Notes under the pieces: generated by a model
Database searches by the model: none
Seen by the model: the letters and a program-made list of their open reading frames with translations, nothing else
What the model was told of the DNA's origin: nothing
Made by a program: the position numbers and the translations under genes
From: a virus
Strand: one strand, 5' to 3'
IMG/VR virus record: IMGVR_UViG_3300013233_000773
DNA length: 64,000 nucleotides
In this document: positions 11,447-47,784 of the stretch, piece after piece
Position numbering within the stretch: position 1 is the stretch's first letter
Layout of the letters: the number at the start of each line of letters is the position of its first letter

Positions 11447-11882
11447 CGTCCACCTCGTAGAACTTCAACGATGTCGGATCAAACTCGTACGTAGTCCCTC
11501 CGAGGTGCCACTGCACACGGTAACCGTTCCTGCGGCCCATCAGCCTACGCTCAATAACGAGGTCCACTGCAAAGCTGGTCATGCGCAGTCCACCGGCCTC
11601 CTTCGCCTCTTCGTCATATTTCCTGACTACTTCCATGCCATCCCTAAGGGCCTTCAGAAGGGAGGGCCTTGAGCTGCGTGCCTTGATCGTCCCCTTCCTG
11701 TCTCCACCGTCCTCCTGCCACCCGACGTCCACCTCGAACCCAACCGGAGCGGTGTTGTCCTGCTCGATCATGGACCTTATCATCGCGAACAGGTCCTCGG
11801 GGCTGCGCAGAGGCCTGATGGCCACTCCGATCTCATGTGGTTCGTCCACAATGAGGTCAGGAACTACACCATCCTCAGACAT
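11436..11882 (-). CDS. Hypothetical protein
   Basis: Start MSEDGVVPDL with GGAGG RBS. Confidence 0.6.
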   Translation of the reverse strand: MSEDGVVPDLIVDEPHEIGVAIRPLRSPEDLFAMIRSMIEQDNTAPVGFEVDVGWQEDGGDRKGTIKARSSRPSLLKALRDGMEVVRKYDEEAKEAGGLRMTSFAVDLVIERRLMGRRNGYRVQWHLGGTTYEFDPTSLKFYEVDDAE

Positions 11883-12249
11883 CGGTTCCTCCGTCCGGCA
11901 TGAGTAGTCCGTCATCCTGTCCGGAGTTCTCAAGAACGACATGCCATGGATGTCTCTGGAACCACCTAGATAGCAGCTCGTGAAGGACGTTGGAGAGTCT
12001 ATGCAGCACGAAGATCCTAACGACTACCGACATTGCCGGAGGACCAACGTCAAGAGATGGCAGGTAGAGTGCCAGGGGAACCGCGACCCACACGGACATG
12101 CAATAGCCGCAGCTGACCAGCTTGCTGAGCAGCTGACCCCTCCTCGAGACCCATGCGCGGACTCCAAGAAGAATGTCCGACGACACCAATATCTCGACGA
12201 CAGCCTCTACTGCCAGCGTTGCGGCGAACCATGTAGCCAGGACCATCAT
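11875..12249 (-). CDS. DUF1360-like membrane protein
   Basis: Hydrophobic helices with a 'LVSCGYCMSVWV' CxxC motif. Confidence 0.6.
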   Translation of the reverse strand: MMVLATWFAATLAVEAVVEILVSSDILLGVRAWVSRRGQLLSKLVSCGYCMSVWVAVPLALYLPSLDVGPPAMSVVVRIFVLHRLSNVLHELLSRWFQRHPWHVVLENSGQDDGLLMPDGGTDV

Positions 12250-12266
12250 GACGCTATATACGCAGA

Positions 12267-12581
12267 CTACCCTGTTATCCGATATCCGCACGACCTGTTT
12301 GTGCATACGAATGAATATCTGCGGCGCCTCTCCTTGACGTCATATCTAGGCAATCCTGCCATTGGCCAGGTACAGCGCGGGCACTTCTTGTGCTTGGCTA
12401 TCTGCTGTCCGGTCACTCCCCTCGTCACCGCCTTTACAGGGGCCTTGCTCAGCGGCACCTTCCTTGTCGGCTTCGGCCGCACAGCACTACGCGCCGTGCC
12501 CTTTAGTGGTTGGGCGGTCGGCCTGCTCCTCGCAGACCTAGTGTAGAGAACGTTCCGTTTGCCACCTCCGCAGCAGCCCAT
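12267..12581 (-). CDS. Basic Zn-ribbon protein
   Basis: MGCCGGG start with GGAGG RBS; CPRC...CTNRSC. Confidence 0.6.
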   Translation of the reverse strand: MGCCGGGKRNVLYTRSARSRPTAQPLKGTARSAVRPKPTRKVPLSKAPVKAVTRGVTGQQIAKHKKCPRCTWPMAGLPRYDVKERRRRYSFVCTNRSCGYRITG

Positions 12582-14416: not shown

Positions 14417-14679
14417 CAGACAACTTTCTTCGTGATTATCATGCTCTGGTCTACCTGCACAGGCTCGAAACCGGCGGCAGCCTCAAGCTCCAGAAACCCC
14501 CTGATCGTCGGGTTGCCGGAAGTAGTGGGGATCGTCGGATCGTCGACCAGCCGGTGCTCCTCGACGAACGACAGAGCCTCCTTGATGGTGACCGAGTCCT
14601 TTCCTACCTGATATATCCTGCCTGTGCTCTGGTTGATCCTGAATAAGCCCATGGCTGCAACATGAACCGAGACCGCCAT
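14416..14679 (-). CDS. Hypothetical protein
   Basis: 87 aa with AGGAG RBS, preceded by a CAAAGATA motif. Confidence 0.6.
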   Translation of the reverse strand: MAVSVHVAAMGLFRINQSTGRIYQVGKDSVTIKEALSFVEEHRLVDDPTIPTTSGNPTIRGFLELEAAAGFEPVQVDQSMIITKKVV

Positions 14680-14719
14680 CTGGATGCTCCTTGTCCTGGG
14701 GGCGACGCATCAAGCTCTT

Positions 14720-17211: not shown

Positions 17212-18363
17212 TCACGGCACAGAACGAAGCAGCTTCCAGCCGCGCCACCGCCGACCGACGCTCACCCTCAAGGGCATCATTAAGCCCCCGACACCCTCCA
17301 ACGGCCTGGCCACTATCTCCTGAAGCGACGGAAGTAGTTCTCCAATCGAGTTCTCTGGCGCGCAGAGGACGACCGAATCGTGAACCTCCGTCAACACGTT
17401 CTGTGGACACCTCCGCAGCAACCTGGCCATCACGGAATGCATGGCGTGCGCCACGGAGCCTTGAAACTGCGCATTGAACACGCTAAGCTCATTGCGGCCA
17501 TTCTCTCCCCCGACGCCATACCTACGCCCCAGGATCGTCTCCACGAAGCCCTCCGACCGCATCCTGGCAACCCTGTCCGCCATCCACTTCCTAAACTCCG
17601 GAAAAGGCTGAAAGACCGGATCGTCGGTCCTGAGCGAATAAAAGGAACGGAAGAAATCACGCTTGCACTGCTCCCTAGAGGGCTCGCCGAGGCACTCCGC
17701 TATCACGCTGTACGGATCACCCCTGGAGAACGCAGCGGCCATCGGCCCGTCCCCGGACATGAACGCAGCCATGCGCACGTCCGCAGCCGTCCAGTCGAGA
17801 CAAACGAACCAGTCATAATCATCCCGAACATGCCTGACGGCAGTCTCCCCGGTCATTCCCTGAACGTTGAAGCCAGTCGTCCTCGAACGGCCAGTATAGG
17901 TCCCAAGATCATAGTGGATGCCATCGACGCGCCTATATCCGTGCATGACCCCACGCTGCTGCAGAATCGCATACATGACTGAAGCCCTGCCCATCAACAC
18001 GCGCCACGGATCTTCACGGACGCTCCGGACAGACTCTACGGCGGCCCTCAACAACGACTTCCGGACCGACGCTGCGTCCCTGGCCCGCCCAGCCGCGACC
18101 GGCACGCACGACTCAACCAGCCCATGTCCGCCATGAAGCTCAAGACCAAACCCCAGCAAGTGCGTGACGCAGTCGTTACATAACGCCCCATCCTCGAGCA
18201 GCTCACGCACCCTCTGTACGCCATTCCTGACCTGCTTCAGCCTGAGACCAGTACCGGGAAGATACGCGTCTATGAACTCCACCCTGCCGTCCTCCACCAC
18301 GACGGACGACAATGGCCTAGGGTGATTCCTGCTCTTATCGAACAGCGTTACGACATGGCGCAT
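17212..18363 (-). CDS. Compact family A DNA polymerase (polymerase domain only)
   Basis: 'TYTGRS..GFNVQ', motif A 'LDWTAADVR', motif B 'REQCKRDFFRSFY', 'GFVETILGRR', 'FNAQFQGSVA', motif C 'EVHDSVV'. Confidence 0.8.
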   Translation of the reverse strand: MRHVVTLFDKSRNHPRPLSSVVVEDGRVEFIDAYLPGTGLRLKQVRNGVQRVRELLEDGALCNDCVTHLLGFGLELHGGHGLVESCVPVAAGRARDAASVRKSLLRAAVESVRSVREDPWRVLMGRASVMYAILQQRGVMHGYRRVDGIHYDLGTYTGRSRTTGFNVQGMTGETAVRHVRDDYDWFVCLDWTAADVRMAAFMSGDGPMAAAFSRGDPYSVIAECLGEPSREQCKRDFFRSFYSLRTDDPVFQPFPEFRKWMADRVARMRSEGFVETILGRRYGVGGENGRNELSVFNAQFQGSVAHAMHSVMARLLRRCPQNVLTEVHDSVVLCAPENSIGELLPSLQEIVARPLEGVGGLMMPLRVSVGRRWRGWKLLRSVP

Positions 18364-42959: not shown

Positions 42960-43748
42960 TCAAACCGGCCACGGAACGACAGGCCTCCGCCTCCTGGAAA
43001 GCCTCCCAGGAACACGGGGCACGCACTCGGAAGGGTTCAGGATACAATACAGGTCATCTATCTCCCACCCCTGACGAACCACCCCACGGCACAGCGACGA
43101 CTCAAGCACCGCCGCCCACTTCCCCTCCCCACGATCATGCACCCACGCCCTACACACCCGCCCGACCAGCCTAGAACCCCAAGCGTTCCAACCACGCTTC
43201 GGGGAGAACCTCTGCCTACGCACAAGCTCACCACAGCGGACCCACCCGGCACCGGGCAGCCTAATGAAACCATCTCCGAAGAGCACCCTCTCGTGTACCG
43301 GAGCCCCAGTGCCCCTATCCGCCCTAAAGCACCCATGGTCACCACCGCGCAGGACCCTCGGAAGGTCCCCAACCGACCTCACGGACGGACGGACGAAGTC
43401 AAGGACCGCCACTACGTCCCTGGCGGCCTGCTCGAGCACCACGGGGTGCACCGGCCTCAGCTCCCTGTGCGACCATGTTAGCTCAACCAGGTCCCCTAGG
43501 ACGTCCTTCATCTCGAACACTGGTAGGGAACGGCCCTCCACGATCGCCCTATACCACCCGGACAGGATCCAGTTGTGGACGAACCTAGTCGCTAAACATG
43601 ACCTGCTGAAGGACTCCTCCTGCTCCTCCCCAGGATACAGGTGTACGGCGTGCCTGTCGAACAGCCTGATCCCGGACCGTATGCGGACATCGAACTCGGC
43701 CATCCGGTCAAGTCCTCCACTCAGTGCCTCTTTGCACATTGGAAACAT
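42960..43748 (-). CDS. Hypothetical protein
   Basis: 262-aa ORF with GAGG RBS, divergent from the structured non-coding element. Confidence 0.55.
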   Translation of the reverse strand: MFPMCKEALSGGLDRMAEFDVRIRSGIRLFDRHAVHLYPGEEQEESFSRSCLATRFVHNWILSGWYRAIVEGRSLPVFEMKDVLGDLVELTWSHRELRPVHPVVLEQAARDVVAVLDFVRPSVRSVGDLPRVLRGGDHGCFRADRGTGAPVHERVLFGDGFIRLPGAGWVRCGELVRRQRFSPKRGWNAWGSRLVGRVCRAWVHDRGEGKWAAVLESSLCRGVVRQGWEIDDLYCILNPSECVPRVPGRLSRRRRPVVPWPV

Positions 43749-43825
43749 ATCCTCTGAACCAGGACTCTCAGGAGAGGGGCAAGCGGCCTGTCCTCTTAGT
43801 CGATCCAGAGCGTATATAGCGTCAC

Positions 43826-44455
43826 TGGAGGGAAAGGACCCTCCCGAGGGGACAGGCCTGATCTTTAGAAGGGCCAGTCCAGGCGGTCGTTAGAAAGGCA
43901 GCCGGGTCACCGACCCTGCAGCGCGTCGTGATGACGCCCTGTGTGACCAGGCGGACCCGTTCAAATGGGTACGGCTAGACCGCCAAGACAAAAACAGCAA
44001 AGCCTAGGGCGCAGTTAAAGCCAAGCAGGACAGAGGACCGCCGGTGAACTCTAAAGTCTCATAGCCGGCAACACAGAACGCCATCGTGAACCGGACCGGG
44101 CGTGGCACCCCGGAAACGACACGATGCCGGCACGGCGCTGCACATGCTGCTCGATCACGGCACTAGAAAAAGCCGAACGGGGCACACACGACGCTGAGTG
44201 AGGATGGAAAGGGACGACAAGCCACCTTCTCCTGAGAGCACATGTGCAGGACAGACCGACCGGAATAACCAGCGGGCCAAGAACAGGCGACTGTCCTTGG
44301 CGCCGGAGAGTAGCGGTAATCAGTCCGCCACGATGGAACTCCGGCAATGCGGACCTCTGCTTGGTCGTGACCGCCCGGACGAGATCCGGATGGACGCGCG
44401 AAAGGAAGCATCCTGGCCACGCCATGGTCACCTGTCTAGAGGACCATGGCCCACG
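43826..44455 (+). ncRNA. Putative large structured non-coding RNA (unclassified)
   Basis: Many nested and long-range complementary segments, a GCGA tetraloop, A-rich linkers, an upstream promoter-like 15-mer and no credible ORF. Confidence 0.6.
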
Positions 44456-44535
44456 TTTAACAAGGATGGTACCTTGGAGGTGATGAACTAGGCTACTGAC
44501 AACCAAATAACTGGATCCATCTCATGGCCAGTGGG

Positions 44536-44681
44536 CTCATTCTCTCCTGCCACATGCAGCGGCACACCAAGGAGAAGAGGAAGAGGAAGAGAAAGATAGA
44601 CATAAAACCAGTGCCATTGACCTCATTGACCTCATTCTCTCCTGCCACATGCAGCACAACACCAAGGAGAGGAAGAGGAAG
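44536..44681 (+). repeat. Imperfect direct repeat pair (25-nt exact core)
   Basis: ctcattctctcctgccacatgcagc at 44536-44560 and 44631-44655, each followed by acaccaaggaga..gaggaag. Confidence 0.85.
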
Positions 44682-45018
44682 TAGAAGGCGGCAGTCGTTC
44701 CCTTCTGCCATATGGAGTGGATCCAGTGCTGGGGGCCAGGAAGTTCCTCTCCCTTGTCCTAGTGGGCCATGGACAGCAGGATAGATCAGTGGTCACCGCA
44801 GGATCTGGAGGCCAACAGCTGAGGTTCCGGTTATCTTGTTGAAGTCCCGGTTACCTCTACCCCTGATAGCGATGGGACAGCTGACTGTTACTGGTGGACT
44901 GCTAGTATAGAGTACCGCTGGTCCAGGGCCTTGCAGGCGGCGGATGCGGATGCAACTGGAGACATCATATCCAGACAGAGAACGGACAACTAGAAGAAAA
45001 TGAGCCAATGAGTGAGAC

Positions 45019-45065
45019 AAAACAACCGGTTGTGATAGATAAGGAACATAAAACAACCGGTTGTG
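45019..45065. promoter_or_regulatory. Twin palindromic operator-like sites
   Basis: aaaACAACCGGTTGTg at 45019-45034 and 45050-45065. Confidence 0.65.
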
Positions 45066-45080
45066 GTCTAAAGAAGTTAC

Positions 45081-45108
45081 TTGCATTTAGTCTCTTATTT
45101 GATATCGT
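45081..45108 (+). promoter_or_regulatory. Sigma70-like promoter
   Basis: TTGCAT-16 nt-TATCGT with TG extension in an AT-rich tract upstream of 45133. Confidence 0.4.
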
Positions 45109-45132
45109 GACCCTGGTCTTGGAGAAGACAAA

Positions 45133-45642
45133 GTGGCCATGTTCTGGATATGTAAGGAATGTGGTGAAAGGATGACCGATAGGCAGTCATATCTCGAACA
45201 CTCGTGCGCGCCAAATGGTTCAGTGCAGGCTTGCCTCTCCAAGCGCGACAAGGCCCTGGAAGAGATAAGGTTCTGGATAGGCAAGGTTCCCTATGAGTTG
45301 CGTTCAGTCCTCGTCATGACCGTCAACCTGCTTAAGATGATCGATCCTGACGAGAAGACCTTCGTCGTAGACGGCGAGCTGTATAGGAGAAAGATGGAGG
45401 ATGCGGAGGAGCGCGCCAAGGATGCGGAGGGGCGCGCCAAGGAGGCGGAGGAGCGTGCCAAGGAGGCGGAGGAGCGTGCCAAGGAGGCGGAGGAGCGTGC
45501 CAAGAGAGCGACGGAGAGATTCATGGCCCTGATGGAGGACAACAACGCACTAAAGGCGAAGCTGTTCGACCTGCAGGAGGAGATGGACAGGCTCCGCGCA
45601 AGGATGATGTCGACTGAAAAGAGGATGCTGGACCTGGACTAA
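45133..45642 (+). CDS. Zn-finger coiled-coil protein with AEERAKE repeats
   Basis: 'WICKECG...YLEHSC'; 21-nt tandem repeat at about 45397-45503. Confidence 0.7.
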   Translation: MAMFWICKECGERMTDRQSYLEHSCAPNGSVQACLSKRDKALEEIRFWIGKVPYELRSVLVMTVNLLKMIDPDEKTFVVDGELYRRKMEDAEERAKDAEGRAKEAEERAKEAEERAKEAEERAKRATERFMALMEDNNALKAKLFDLQEEMDRLRARMMSTEKRMLDLD

Positions 45643-45675: not shown

Positions 45676-47784
45676 ATGCCGAGCGCGACCAAGCTGCCAA
45701 AGAGAGCAAACGATGGTGACCAGGTGGCCGACCACCTCGGCAACGTCTACGAGTACAGCTCCGAACAGAACTGCTGGCGCAACATAGGCATCCTGAAGCC
45801 TCCACAGGTGGTCGACTCCGAGAACAATGGTATCATCACCCCAGAAATATTCGATAGGATACAGTCCATACGGAAATTCAAGAAGGACGGAGTCAAGTTC
45901 GACCTCAACAAGATATTCGTCGGCAGGACCGACCGGCACCCCTACTTCTACATGTTCCACTCGACGGACGACCTGATCAGGTTCGACCCCTACGTCGAAC
46001 CGGACGGAACCGTCAAGCTGCCGATAGAGTTCGACCGCCAGAGGTTCTATCAAAAGCTCACGCGCACACCGTGCACAGGGCCACGTGGTCACCAGGGGCC
46101 GCCAGGACTTCCTGGAAAGGACGGCAAGCCGGCACCGAACGAAAGGCCAAGGTCACCGGTCAAGCTCGACAAGGACTCATTCACGATCAATCCGGTCAGG
46201 ATCCCCGCCCCGCTTCCCGACGAGCCAATCTCGGTTCGGGTCTTTGACAACGACGAACAGGTTCTCGAGGTGCTCGTTCCGGTCGGCACCGGAGACCTGG
46301 AGGCCGTTGATGGACCGGTCTTTACCGTCGACCTCGAGAGGACAGACCTCTCGTTCAACGATGGCATGCTCGGCGGAACTGTCTTCGTCAGCAGCGGAGA
46401 GTTCGTCAACGAGCCGAACAGGTGGAGGTACAGGGCTAGGCAGCGGGGCAGGGCGGGGCCGCCAGGAAGGGACGGATCCGGTCTGCTTGAGGTCGTCGAG
46501 GACATGTTCGTTGACGATGCAGTGTCCTTCAACGGGTTCGTGGCGTCCGTTCACGTTACCCCGACGGAGGATGTAGTCGTCCTTAATGGCTCCTTGTCGG
46601 ACAAGCTGTGCAGCAGTTCCCTTAAGCTGACCTCCGAGGACCTGCCGGTCGCCGACCTGCTCGAGAGGCGGGTGGTGGCCGTGGAGCAGGCCGCGAAGAG
46701 CTGCAAGGACGTGGCCTCGTACACGTTCAAGCCGGACGAGGTGGTGGTCCCGAAGCTCTCCCTGCCCGACTGGACTCCGACGATGGCGTGTAGGGATCAG
46801 AGGAGGTTCGAGTTCCAGAAGTTCAAGTGGTTCGACGAGATTGGGGAGATAGTGCCCGAGAACGCCGACTGCATGACGGCGGGCTTCGCGTTCACGATCC
46901 TTGGAGAACCGAAGCCTGGCGTGGAGTGCTGCAAGGAGGATTTCTTCCTATGCAACAACCAGGGAGACTTCTGCGTGATCGACGGGTCTCCTGCAGTCGT
47001 TTCGCGCGGTGAGAACTCGCCGGAGCCGTCCGCCACGGTCGGGACGGTCAGTTCGAGCACGGCAGTCGTGGAGACGCCCGACTTCATCATTCCGGAGCCG
47101 GAGCCCGTCAAGGAGGGGAAGATAGTGCCGGCGAGGTGTCCGTTCGGATCCTCGTCGTCTTCCAGTTCGACAAGCTCCTCCAGTTCGTCCAGCTCGAGCT
47201 CATCTTCACTCGGGTCCAGTTCGTCCAGCTCGTCGTCCAGCTCTTCATCGTCTAGTTCAAGCTCGTCGAGTTCAAGCTCGTCCAGCTCTTCGTCGTCGAG
47301 TTCGTCCAGCTCCAGCTCGTCCAGCGCATTGACTGAGTGCTGTACGGACGGGCTGTCGGCGTCGTATAAGGTGATCTGCGGGGCGGTGTTCTGCGACTCG
47401 AACGATCCCTCAGGATTTGCCAAGAACTTTGCATTCCTGGAGTTCAACAAGGGATGCTTTATCAAGTGCACGGAGGTCAATAGTGGTGCCTGCACGTCGT
47501 GCACGACGAATGAGTTCGTCGGGCGGTGTGAGCTGACGTGTCCAGCCGGTGGCGCCAATGGCTTTGGTCATCTGGACGAGAAGACAGTAACCCTGAAGTG
47601 GAAGGACAAGATCCTACAGAACGTACTCCACAATGAGTGTGGCGCAGATAGCGTCAACACCCCCTTCACTGGTACGATAAAGCTTGCGTGCGACGTTCTC
47701 TGTGAGAACGGAAATCCGAAGGTGAAGTACATAAAATTCATCTTCACCAACGGATGCCTGAATGGTATTATTGGCTGTCAATAA
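45676..47784 (+). CDS. Virion-like protein with short collagen motifs, poly-Ser linker and Cys-rich C-terminus
   Basis: 'GPRGHQGPPGLPGKDG', Ser tract at about 47149-47325, Cys-rich tail. Confidence 0.7.
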   Translation: MPSATKLPKRANDGDQVADHLGNVYEYSSEQNCWRNIGILKPPQVVDSENNGIITPEIFDRIQSIRKFKKDGVKFDLNKIFVGRTDRHPYFYMFHSTDDLIRFDPYVEPDGTVKLPIEFDRQRFYQKLTRTPCTGPRGHQGPPGLPGKDGKPAPNERPRSPVKLDKDSFTINPVRIPAPLPDEPISVRVFDNDEQVLEVLVPVGTGDLEAVDGPVFTVDLERTDLSFNDGMLGGTVFVSSGEFVNEPNRWRYRARQRGRAGPPGRDGSGLLEVVEDMFVDDAVSFNGFVASVHVTPTEDVVVLNGSLSDKLCSSSLKLTSEDLPVADLLERRVVAVEQAAKSCKDVASYTFKPDEVVVPKLSLPDWTPTMACRDQRRFEFQKFKWFDEIGEIVPENADCMTAGFAFTILGEPKPGVECCKEDFFLCNNQGDFCVIDGSPAVVSRGENSPEPSATVGTVSSSTAVVETPDFIIPEPEPVKEGKIVPARCPFGSSSSSSSTSSSSSSSSSSSSLGSSSSSSSSSSSSSSSSSSSSSSSSSSSSSSSSSSSSSALTECCTDGLSASYKVICGAVFCDSNDPSGFAKNFAFLEFNKGCFIKCTEVNSGACTSCTTNEFVGRCELTCPAGGANGFGHLDEKTVTLKWKDKILQNVLHNECGADSVNTPFTGTIKLACDVLCENGNPKVKYIKFIFTNGCLNGIIGCQ

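Follow-up and report, generated by a model that had tools for sequence, protein, structure and literature searches.

The stretch of DNA analysed here (hereafter the window) comprises 64,000 nt and is the last 64 kb of a 140.5-kb IMG/VR record (G000) that is classed as provirus and 38% complete. It encodes RNR, DnaB, RecA, gp32, a split DnaE, an actin-like Volactin protein and SbcC-like proteins, and is therefore part of a giant phage. Within it, a 1.38-kb gene-free gap (43749-45132) separates a minus-strand gene (42960-43748) from plus-strand genes starting at 45133. The product of the minus-strand gene is a 262-aa orphan with no relatives in the large protein collection searched; its N-terminus matches the TnpB/IS605 OrfB HTH domain (Pfam E 5e-5; PHROG transposase family) but no RuvC part is detectable, so that it looks like a truncated TnpB-like gene. 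On the right side, the gene at 45676-47784 (+) encodes a 702-aa protein, used below as a marker, with a conserved 440-aa N-terminal domain containing a short Gly-X-Y run and several invariant Cys. About 209 metagenomic relatives share this domain, often beside a Volactin-like actin gene and with highly variable C-termini (up to 2280 aa), while no Pfam or PHROG family and no cultured-phage relative was found.

The gap contains a proposed RNA gene of about 640 nt, whose features, as deduced from the window and from the homologs described below, are the following:

43769: cumulative GC-skew minimum of the whole 140.5-kb record, where genes switch from the - strand (left) to the + strand (right)
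43810-43824 (+): promoter-like 15-mer containing GTATATA
43824-44460 (+): proposed RNA gene, both ends of which are inferred
43873-43876 (+): 5' arm GCCA of helix Pz, pairing with TGGC 44414-44417 and closing the 5' and 3' ends; kept but invariant in the homolog L004
43882-43984 (+): Pa domain, in which helix GGCGGTC 43882-43888 / GACCGCC 43978-43984 encloses Pb (43923-43937) and Pd (43955-43970); conserved GUU..AA follows the 5' arm and GGYUAG precedes the 3' arm
44021-44028 (+): 5' arm CCAAGCAG of the long-range helix Pf, pairing with 44357-44364
44027-44035 (+): conserved junction strand AGGACAGAG (family consensus GGA[C/G]NGAG), whose first two bases (44027-44028) also close the Pf 5' arm
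44040-44069 (+): Pe hairpin, GCCGGU 44040-44045 / GCCGGC 44064-44069, with the conserved CUNAUAG segment spanning the 3' end of its loop and the first base of its 3' arm
44070-44275 (+): window-specific variable insertion inside Pf, holding the long hairpin 44138-44249 and one copy (44228-44247) of the iteron-like motif TCTCCTG..CACATG
44276-44301 (+): Pi hairpin, capped by the GNRA loop GCGA
44303-44344 (+): Ph hairpin, CCGGAG 44303-44308 / CUCCGG 44339-44344
44350-44364 (+): conserved G..CCU motif followed by the Pf 3' arm CTGCTTGG (44357-44364)
44375-44389 (+): Pg hairpin, CCGG-ACGAGAU-CCGG, whose loop could pair with the conserved AUCUU at 43861 in a hypothetical pseudoknot
44421-44453 (+): terminal 9-bp hairpin, a possible 3' end; a terminator-like hairpin lies in the matching place in L004 (L004 1709-1731)
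44529-44685: two 62-nt direct repeats carrying the other two genome-wide copies of TCTCCTG..CACATG, plus polypurine tracts

A sequence-only reading of the region had described it as an ORF-poor stretch packed with complementary segments, and this observation is confirmed, all the segments that it named being present at the positions given. All six frames carry a mix of TAA, TAG and TGA codons, so that no single recoding opens a frame, and alternative genetic codes were rejected. The + strand folds at -259.9 kcal/mol (z -3.9 against dinucleotide shuffles), versus z -2.6 for the - strand. However, this energy ranks only 19th against 100 other 646-nt windows of the same genome at equal GC; energy alone is thus not decisive, and it is the comparison with homologs that decides.

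The first homolog was reached through the 702-aa marker protein, one of whose relatives, encoded on the Logan contig L004, is preceded by an 850-nt gap that shares co-linear blocks with the window RNA, by eye and by alignment. Local Smith-Waterman alignment of the two is not decisive, but global alignment beats all 150 shuffles and 60 natural controls (z between 4.5 and 7). The window carries about 280 extra nt inside Pf and L004 about 220 extra nt after Pg, which is why naive alignments fail: the MAFFT alignment of the two sequences is wrong in the 3' half because the insertions lie at different places. With an anchored alignment, the RNAalifold energy reaches z -6.1 on the + strand and -4.2 on the - strand against column shuffles. 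A script-checked table of nine helices shared by the window and L004 gives 47 pairs, of which 10 are changed on both sides, 3 on one side and none is broken, and enforcing the shared helices costs only 7.5 kcal/mol (window) and 14 kcal/mol (L004) relative to the free MFE. Another pairing in the window, Pf2 (44038/44349), overlaps Pe and is kept only as a possible alternative.

These data also allow the individual pairings of the sequence-only reading to be judged. Its long-range pair 44021/44357 (Pf) reads CCAAGCAG/CTGCTTGG in the window and CCCAGTAG/CTACTGGG in L004, and is kept with compensating changes, as are the 43955 hairpin, the 44276 GNRA hairpin and the pair 44302/44339; the pair 43872/44413 is kept but invariant. 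In contrast, GGCGGTC 43882, proposed to pair with 44369, pairs locally with GACCGCC 43978 (L004: GGGTC/GACCC). The 43827, 44138/44236 and 44421 hairpins and the alternative pairings of CCATCGTG lie in window-specific parts and remain predictions from the window sequence.

The family was then widened with covariance models. A model built from the window alone (R1) found L004 at E 0.003 and, in IMG/VR records retrieved through a protein alignment of the marker domain, three near-identical records (G007, G008, and G009, together homolog M) at 26.6 bits. A three-sequence core model (R2), against which the window scores 88.7 bits, found four more IMG/VR records, G006 (46 bits), G003 (36 bits), G005 (21.5 bits), and G004 (18.8 bits), with one hit in each of the two complete, terminally repeated genomes, G003 (320 kb) and G005 (371 kb). 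The RNA thus recurs in at least six other uncultivated giant-phage genomes, and is single-copy in the window's genome. The two weak hits are validated independently: in each of the seven sequences compared (the window, L004, M, and the IMG/VR loci A52, A53, A54, and A55), there is exactly one downstream G..CCU motif, and the 8 nt that follow it pair perfectly with the 8 nt before GGA[C/G]NGAG in 6 of 7 sequences, with covariation at 5 of the 8 positions; the seventh sequence needs bulges. Pe is 97.5% paired, with 4 of 6 pairs changed on both sides, while slid controls fall to 13-42%. RNAalifold on an unbiased MAFFT alignment of M, A52, and L004 recovers Pa, Pf, Pe, and Ph, the Pa 3' arm in M being assigned with the help of A52. 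Pa, Pb, Pd, Ph, Pg, and Pi are also kept; a hairpin directly 5' of Ph is present in all members and is GNRA-capped in four of the seven (GCGA in the window, L004, and A54, GAAA in M). In addition, G-U pairs recur on the + strand and unpaired positions of the window RNA are 49% A, both of which point to the + strand. The proposed family, for which we use the working name skew-minimum RNA, is recognized by the GGA[C/G]NGAG junction strand, a Pe hairpin ending in CUNAUAG-like loop sequence, and a Pf helix whose 3' arm follows G..CCU; all three features are present in the window, at 44021-44069 and 44350-44364.

No described RNA family accounts for this RNA. A search of the whole window with the 4227 models of Rfam 15, including GOLLD, ROOL, OLE, raiA, HEARO, RNase P, tmRNA, 6S, group I and II introns, and Polynucleobacter-1 (RF01718), gave no hit at gathering threshold and, at E<=10, only scattered hits of 12.8-18.6 bits to unrelated families, read as noise. 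L004 gave only two weak unrelated hits (10.5 and 17 bits, E<=10), and five IMG/VR homolog loci gave none at E<=1. By sequence, neither the gap nor the RNA found anything in INPHARED phages (blastn) or in related loci (blastn and nhmmer). Four exact-pattern scans (two of viral contigs, one of metagenome contigs, and one of genome contigs) gave only chance hits, in coding DNA or a tRNA, and a fifth recovered only M plus one coding false hit. Weak model hits in G003 (L043) and in another record, G002 (L044, about 14,620-14,700, - strand), were due to chance; the latter falls, through its anticodon-arm region, in a tRNA-like gene with an acceptor stem ending in CCA and the T-arm GTTCGATCC.

The position of the RNA in the genome, where the strand bias flips at the likely start point of DNA copying, is a further common trait. 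In the six genomes or contigs that could be tested, the RNA lies 42-1168 nt from the local cumulative GC-skew minimum, and in four of them (G000, G003, G004, and G008) this is also the contig-wide minimum. The minimum of the window's record, at 43769, lies about 55 nt before the proposed RNA start. In the complete genome G003, the global minimum (168,977) is 327 nt from the RNA, for which simple arithmetic on the distances gives a chance of about 0.002 for this genome alone. The contig-wide minimum lies 296 nt away in G004 and 1168 nt away in G008, and a sharp local minimum lies 42 nt away in G006 and 392 nt away in G005. G005 has a second, deeper V-shaped minimum at about 345,800, some 96 kb from the RNA locus and without an RNA model hit, which could be a second origin or an inversion. 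In all six genomes, genes to the left are mostly on the - strand and genes to the right mostly on the + strand, and the RNA points away from the minimum or spans it. In M, however, a protein gene lies between the minimum and the RNA, and the next gene downstream is convergent. No RNA was found near the marker gene in the relatives L003, L005, L006, L007, L021, L022, L028, and L029, which at first suggested a sporadic or mobile distribution. This reading was dropped once the RNA proved to track the skew minimum rather than the marker gene, the absence being explained by a variable distance between that gene and the switch point and not by loss of the RNA.

Several lineages carry repeats or AT-rich DNA next to the RNA or inside its variable insertion, although these differ in kind and position between lineages. 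The motif TCTCCTG-N(0-6)-CACATG occurs exactly three times in the 140-kb genome, each time on the + strand in this gap, at 44228-44247 inside the variable insertion and at 44543-44562 and 44638-44657 in the 62-nt repeats; it is iteron-like and may be a protein-binding site. In G003, sixteen perfect tandem copies of GATTAAAA (L053, about 168,824-168,951) lie between the genome-wide minimum and the RNA, and A54 has an AAAAGCAA array and an 88% AT stretch inside its insertion. The insertion of the G005 homolog (A55) instead holds an 87-codon, helical-looking ORF without a Pfam match (L055:1652-1915 (+)). A small family-A polymerase-like protein (about 375-390 aa), matching only the C-terminal half of DNA_pol_A, is encoded about 16-27 kb from the RNA in all five genomes searched, i.e., the window's own (17212-18363 (-)), G003, G005, G006, and G008. 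RNase H (PF00075) was not detectable in four of the five.

As for the ends of the RNA, the 15-mer at 43810-43824 recurs exactly once, as the sequence-only reading had noted, at 12249-12263 (-). This second copy ends at the A of an in-frame ATG (12249; ORF 11875-12306 (-)), which suggests a leaderless mRNA, and several other TATATAG sites in the genome are also followed by a start codon within 2-5 nt. GTATATA occurs only four times in the genome and also precedes the M RNA, while L004 has TCTATAT upstream.

Altogether, we hold with high confidence that this is a real, conserved, strand-specific structured RNA of a new family. In the best explanation, 43824-44460 (+) is the gene for a stand-alone, complex-folded non-coding RNA of about 640 nt, the first recognized member of an undescribed family kept by a clade of uncultivated jumbo phages. 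The interpretation made from sequence alone, an undescribed large structured phage RNA, is supported: the region passes the sequence-based tests set for it beforehand, namely the absence of an Rfam hit, a fold better than shuffles and covariation in homologs. What the analysis establishes is a conserved multi-helix core, in which closing helix Pz is followed by the Pa domain and Pf then encloses Pe, a variable insertion of 124-510 nt, Pi, and Ph, with Pg lying after Pf, together with specificity for the + strand and a constant position at the GC-skew minimum and gene-orientation divergence point. Transcription, the two ends and any function in replication are, in contrast, inferred. Our preferred but tentative reading, which we consider somewhat less likely than not, is that of an origin-associated transcript that primes or controls initiation. 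In this view, the RNA would be transcribed outward from the replication origin by a phage promoter (GTATATA box) and its folded core would decide whether the transcript stays hybridized to the adjacent repeat-rich or AT-rich DNA, a persistent hybrid then serving as primer, or as an opening device, for the small family-A polymerase and DnaE replisome of the phage, in the logic of ColE1 RNA II and of the T4 oriF/oriG origin transcripts. The sequence-only reading had already raised, as an alternative, a pre-primer at the skew switch, invoking a PolA-like enzyme, an RNase H fold and DnaE; this is not proven but gained real support from the position of the homologs and from the family-A polymerase, though not from RNase H.

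This reading has a serious, if also tentative, rival in a trans-acting "ornate" RNA in the manner of GOLLD or ROOL, i.e., a scaffold, a multimeric assembly or a decoy for a host or phage protein, which would sit at the divergence point only because the first strong promoters are there. The skew minimum is also the transcription divergence point, so the position fits a first-promoter RNA equally well. The promoter-like box, the terminal hairpins of the window and L004, which look like a discrete 3' end, and the closing helix, GNRA loops and conserved unpaired motifs typical of tertiary-folded RNAs are in line with this possibility, as is the lack of a co-directional gene after the RNA in M. Against the origin reading also stand a fold more elaborate than priming alone needs, the gene arrangement in M, the absence of RNase H (PF00075) from four of five genomes and the differences in the nearby repeats between lineages. 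Moreover, the gene directly downstream of the L004 RNA (L004:1883-2593 (+)) has a near-threshold Acb2/Tad1 hairpin-domain hit (26.8 bits against a cut-off of 27), matches phrog_2428 and may encode an anti-defence sponge. On the other hand, a trans-acting RNA gives no reason for the 6-of-6 coincidence with the skew minimum across at least four lineages, nor for origin-like repeats or AT-rich DNA inside the variable insertion, and no sequence or model similarity to GOLLD, ROOL, OLE or raiA was found.

The remaining possibilities are less likely. A long structured 5' leader acting in cis by attenuation, antitermination or a riboswitch-like mechanism is unlikely: the next genes downstream are co-directional in the window, L004, A52, A53, and A54, and L004 has a terminator-like hairpin between the RNA and the next gene, but the downstream gene is convergent in M, about 670 nt of repeats separate the RNA from the next gene in the window, the downstream genes differ between members and the size is several times that of known leaders. 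A DNA-level element, either single-stranded origin DNA folding into a priming signal or plain protein-binding origin DNA, would fit the skew minimum and the nearby repeats, but is very unlikely given helices that span 124-510 nt of variable insert, recurrent G-U pairs that would be G-T or A-C mismatches in DNA, GNRA loops and A-rich unpaired positions. Equally improbable is a degenerate or unusual self-splicing intron or mobile ribozyme, which the ORF in the A55 insertion and the absence of the RNA next to the marker gene in some relatives could have suggested: no flanking exons exist, the neighbours being separate genes, often on the other strand, or repeats, the RNA is present in one copy per genome at a fixed landmark, and there is not even a weak group I (RF00028) or group II hit in any member. 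A group I intron interrupts a host gene and has a P3-P7 pseudoknot core with a G-binding site, and a group II intron has a 5' GUGYG, a 34-nt domain V with catalytic triad and 2-nt bulge, and a domain VI bulged A. No group II domain V-like hairpin was found either, the only GNRA hairpin in the window RNA (44276-44301) having a different length and layout. Finally, an omega RNA was considered because of the TnpB-like left neighbour, but such RNAs lie on the same strand as the nuclease gene, overlapping its 3' end (TnpB) or just upstream (IscB), and co-occur with it, whereas this RNA is on the opposite strand, upstream of the 5' end of a gene that is not shared with L004 or other members, and there is no HEARO or omega-RNA hit.

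How jumbo and mega phages start replication is essentially unknown and their origins have not been mapped; a conserved, easily recognized RNA gene that marks the GC-skew minimum in genomes from 140 kb (incomplete) to 371 kb gives a concrete, testable landmark for the origin, which the R2 model, with one hit per complete genome, could be used to annotate in metagenomic phage genomes. A bolder possibility, again judged somewhat less likely than not, is that phages of this clade start or license bidirectional replication with a dedicated, tertiary-folded origin RNA, whose conserved core flanks a lineage-specific insert carrying the DNA-level origin elements (iterons, AT-rich unwinding DNA). This would be a ribonucleoprotein-style origin not described for any large dsDNA phage. 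If the RNA takes part in initiation, it would extend RNA II-type and R-loop-type priming from small plasmids and T4 to giant phages, with a much more elaborate fold; if not, it is still a new large "ornate" RNA family of about 0.45-0.7 kb, with GNRA loops, long-range helices and a tolerated insertion site, which makes it a good target for cryo-EM and function discovery.

Among known systems, the pre-primer RNA II of ColE1/pMB1 plasmids is likewise about 0.55-0.65 kb and highly structured, is transcribed from its own promoter beside or towards the replication start and fits a system with a family-A polymerase. Its transcript forms a persistent hybrid at the origin, is cut by RNase H and is extended by a family-A polymerase, under the control of an antisense RNA I. 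There is, however, no sequence or model similarity between the two, no antisense RNA I-like partner was seen, and the RNA described here appears to end in a hairpin and has a closing 5'-3' helix, whereas RNA II reads into its origin; it also sits in 140-370-kb phage genomes at a bidirectional-looking skew minimum. The origin transcripts of phage T4, oriF (uvsY) and oriG (34), would share with it the logic of a phage origin at which a promoter-driven transcript stays hybridized next to an unwinding element and primes leading-strand synthesis, but these RNAs are short and are not known to need a conserved tertiary-type fold, while here a multi-helix core is conserved over deep divergence, down to 24-38% identity in the neighbouring marker protein. 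With regard to GOLLD and ROOL (PMC12286853), the Rfam models of these families give no hit, no tRNA genes are present in the window, so that the RNA is not beside a tRNA cluster, and a fixed position at the skew minimum is not a described feature of either family; nonetheless, all are large (about 0.6 kb), intricately folded, phage-borne RNAs of unknown biochemical function, with GNRA loops and many conserved unpaired nucleotides.
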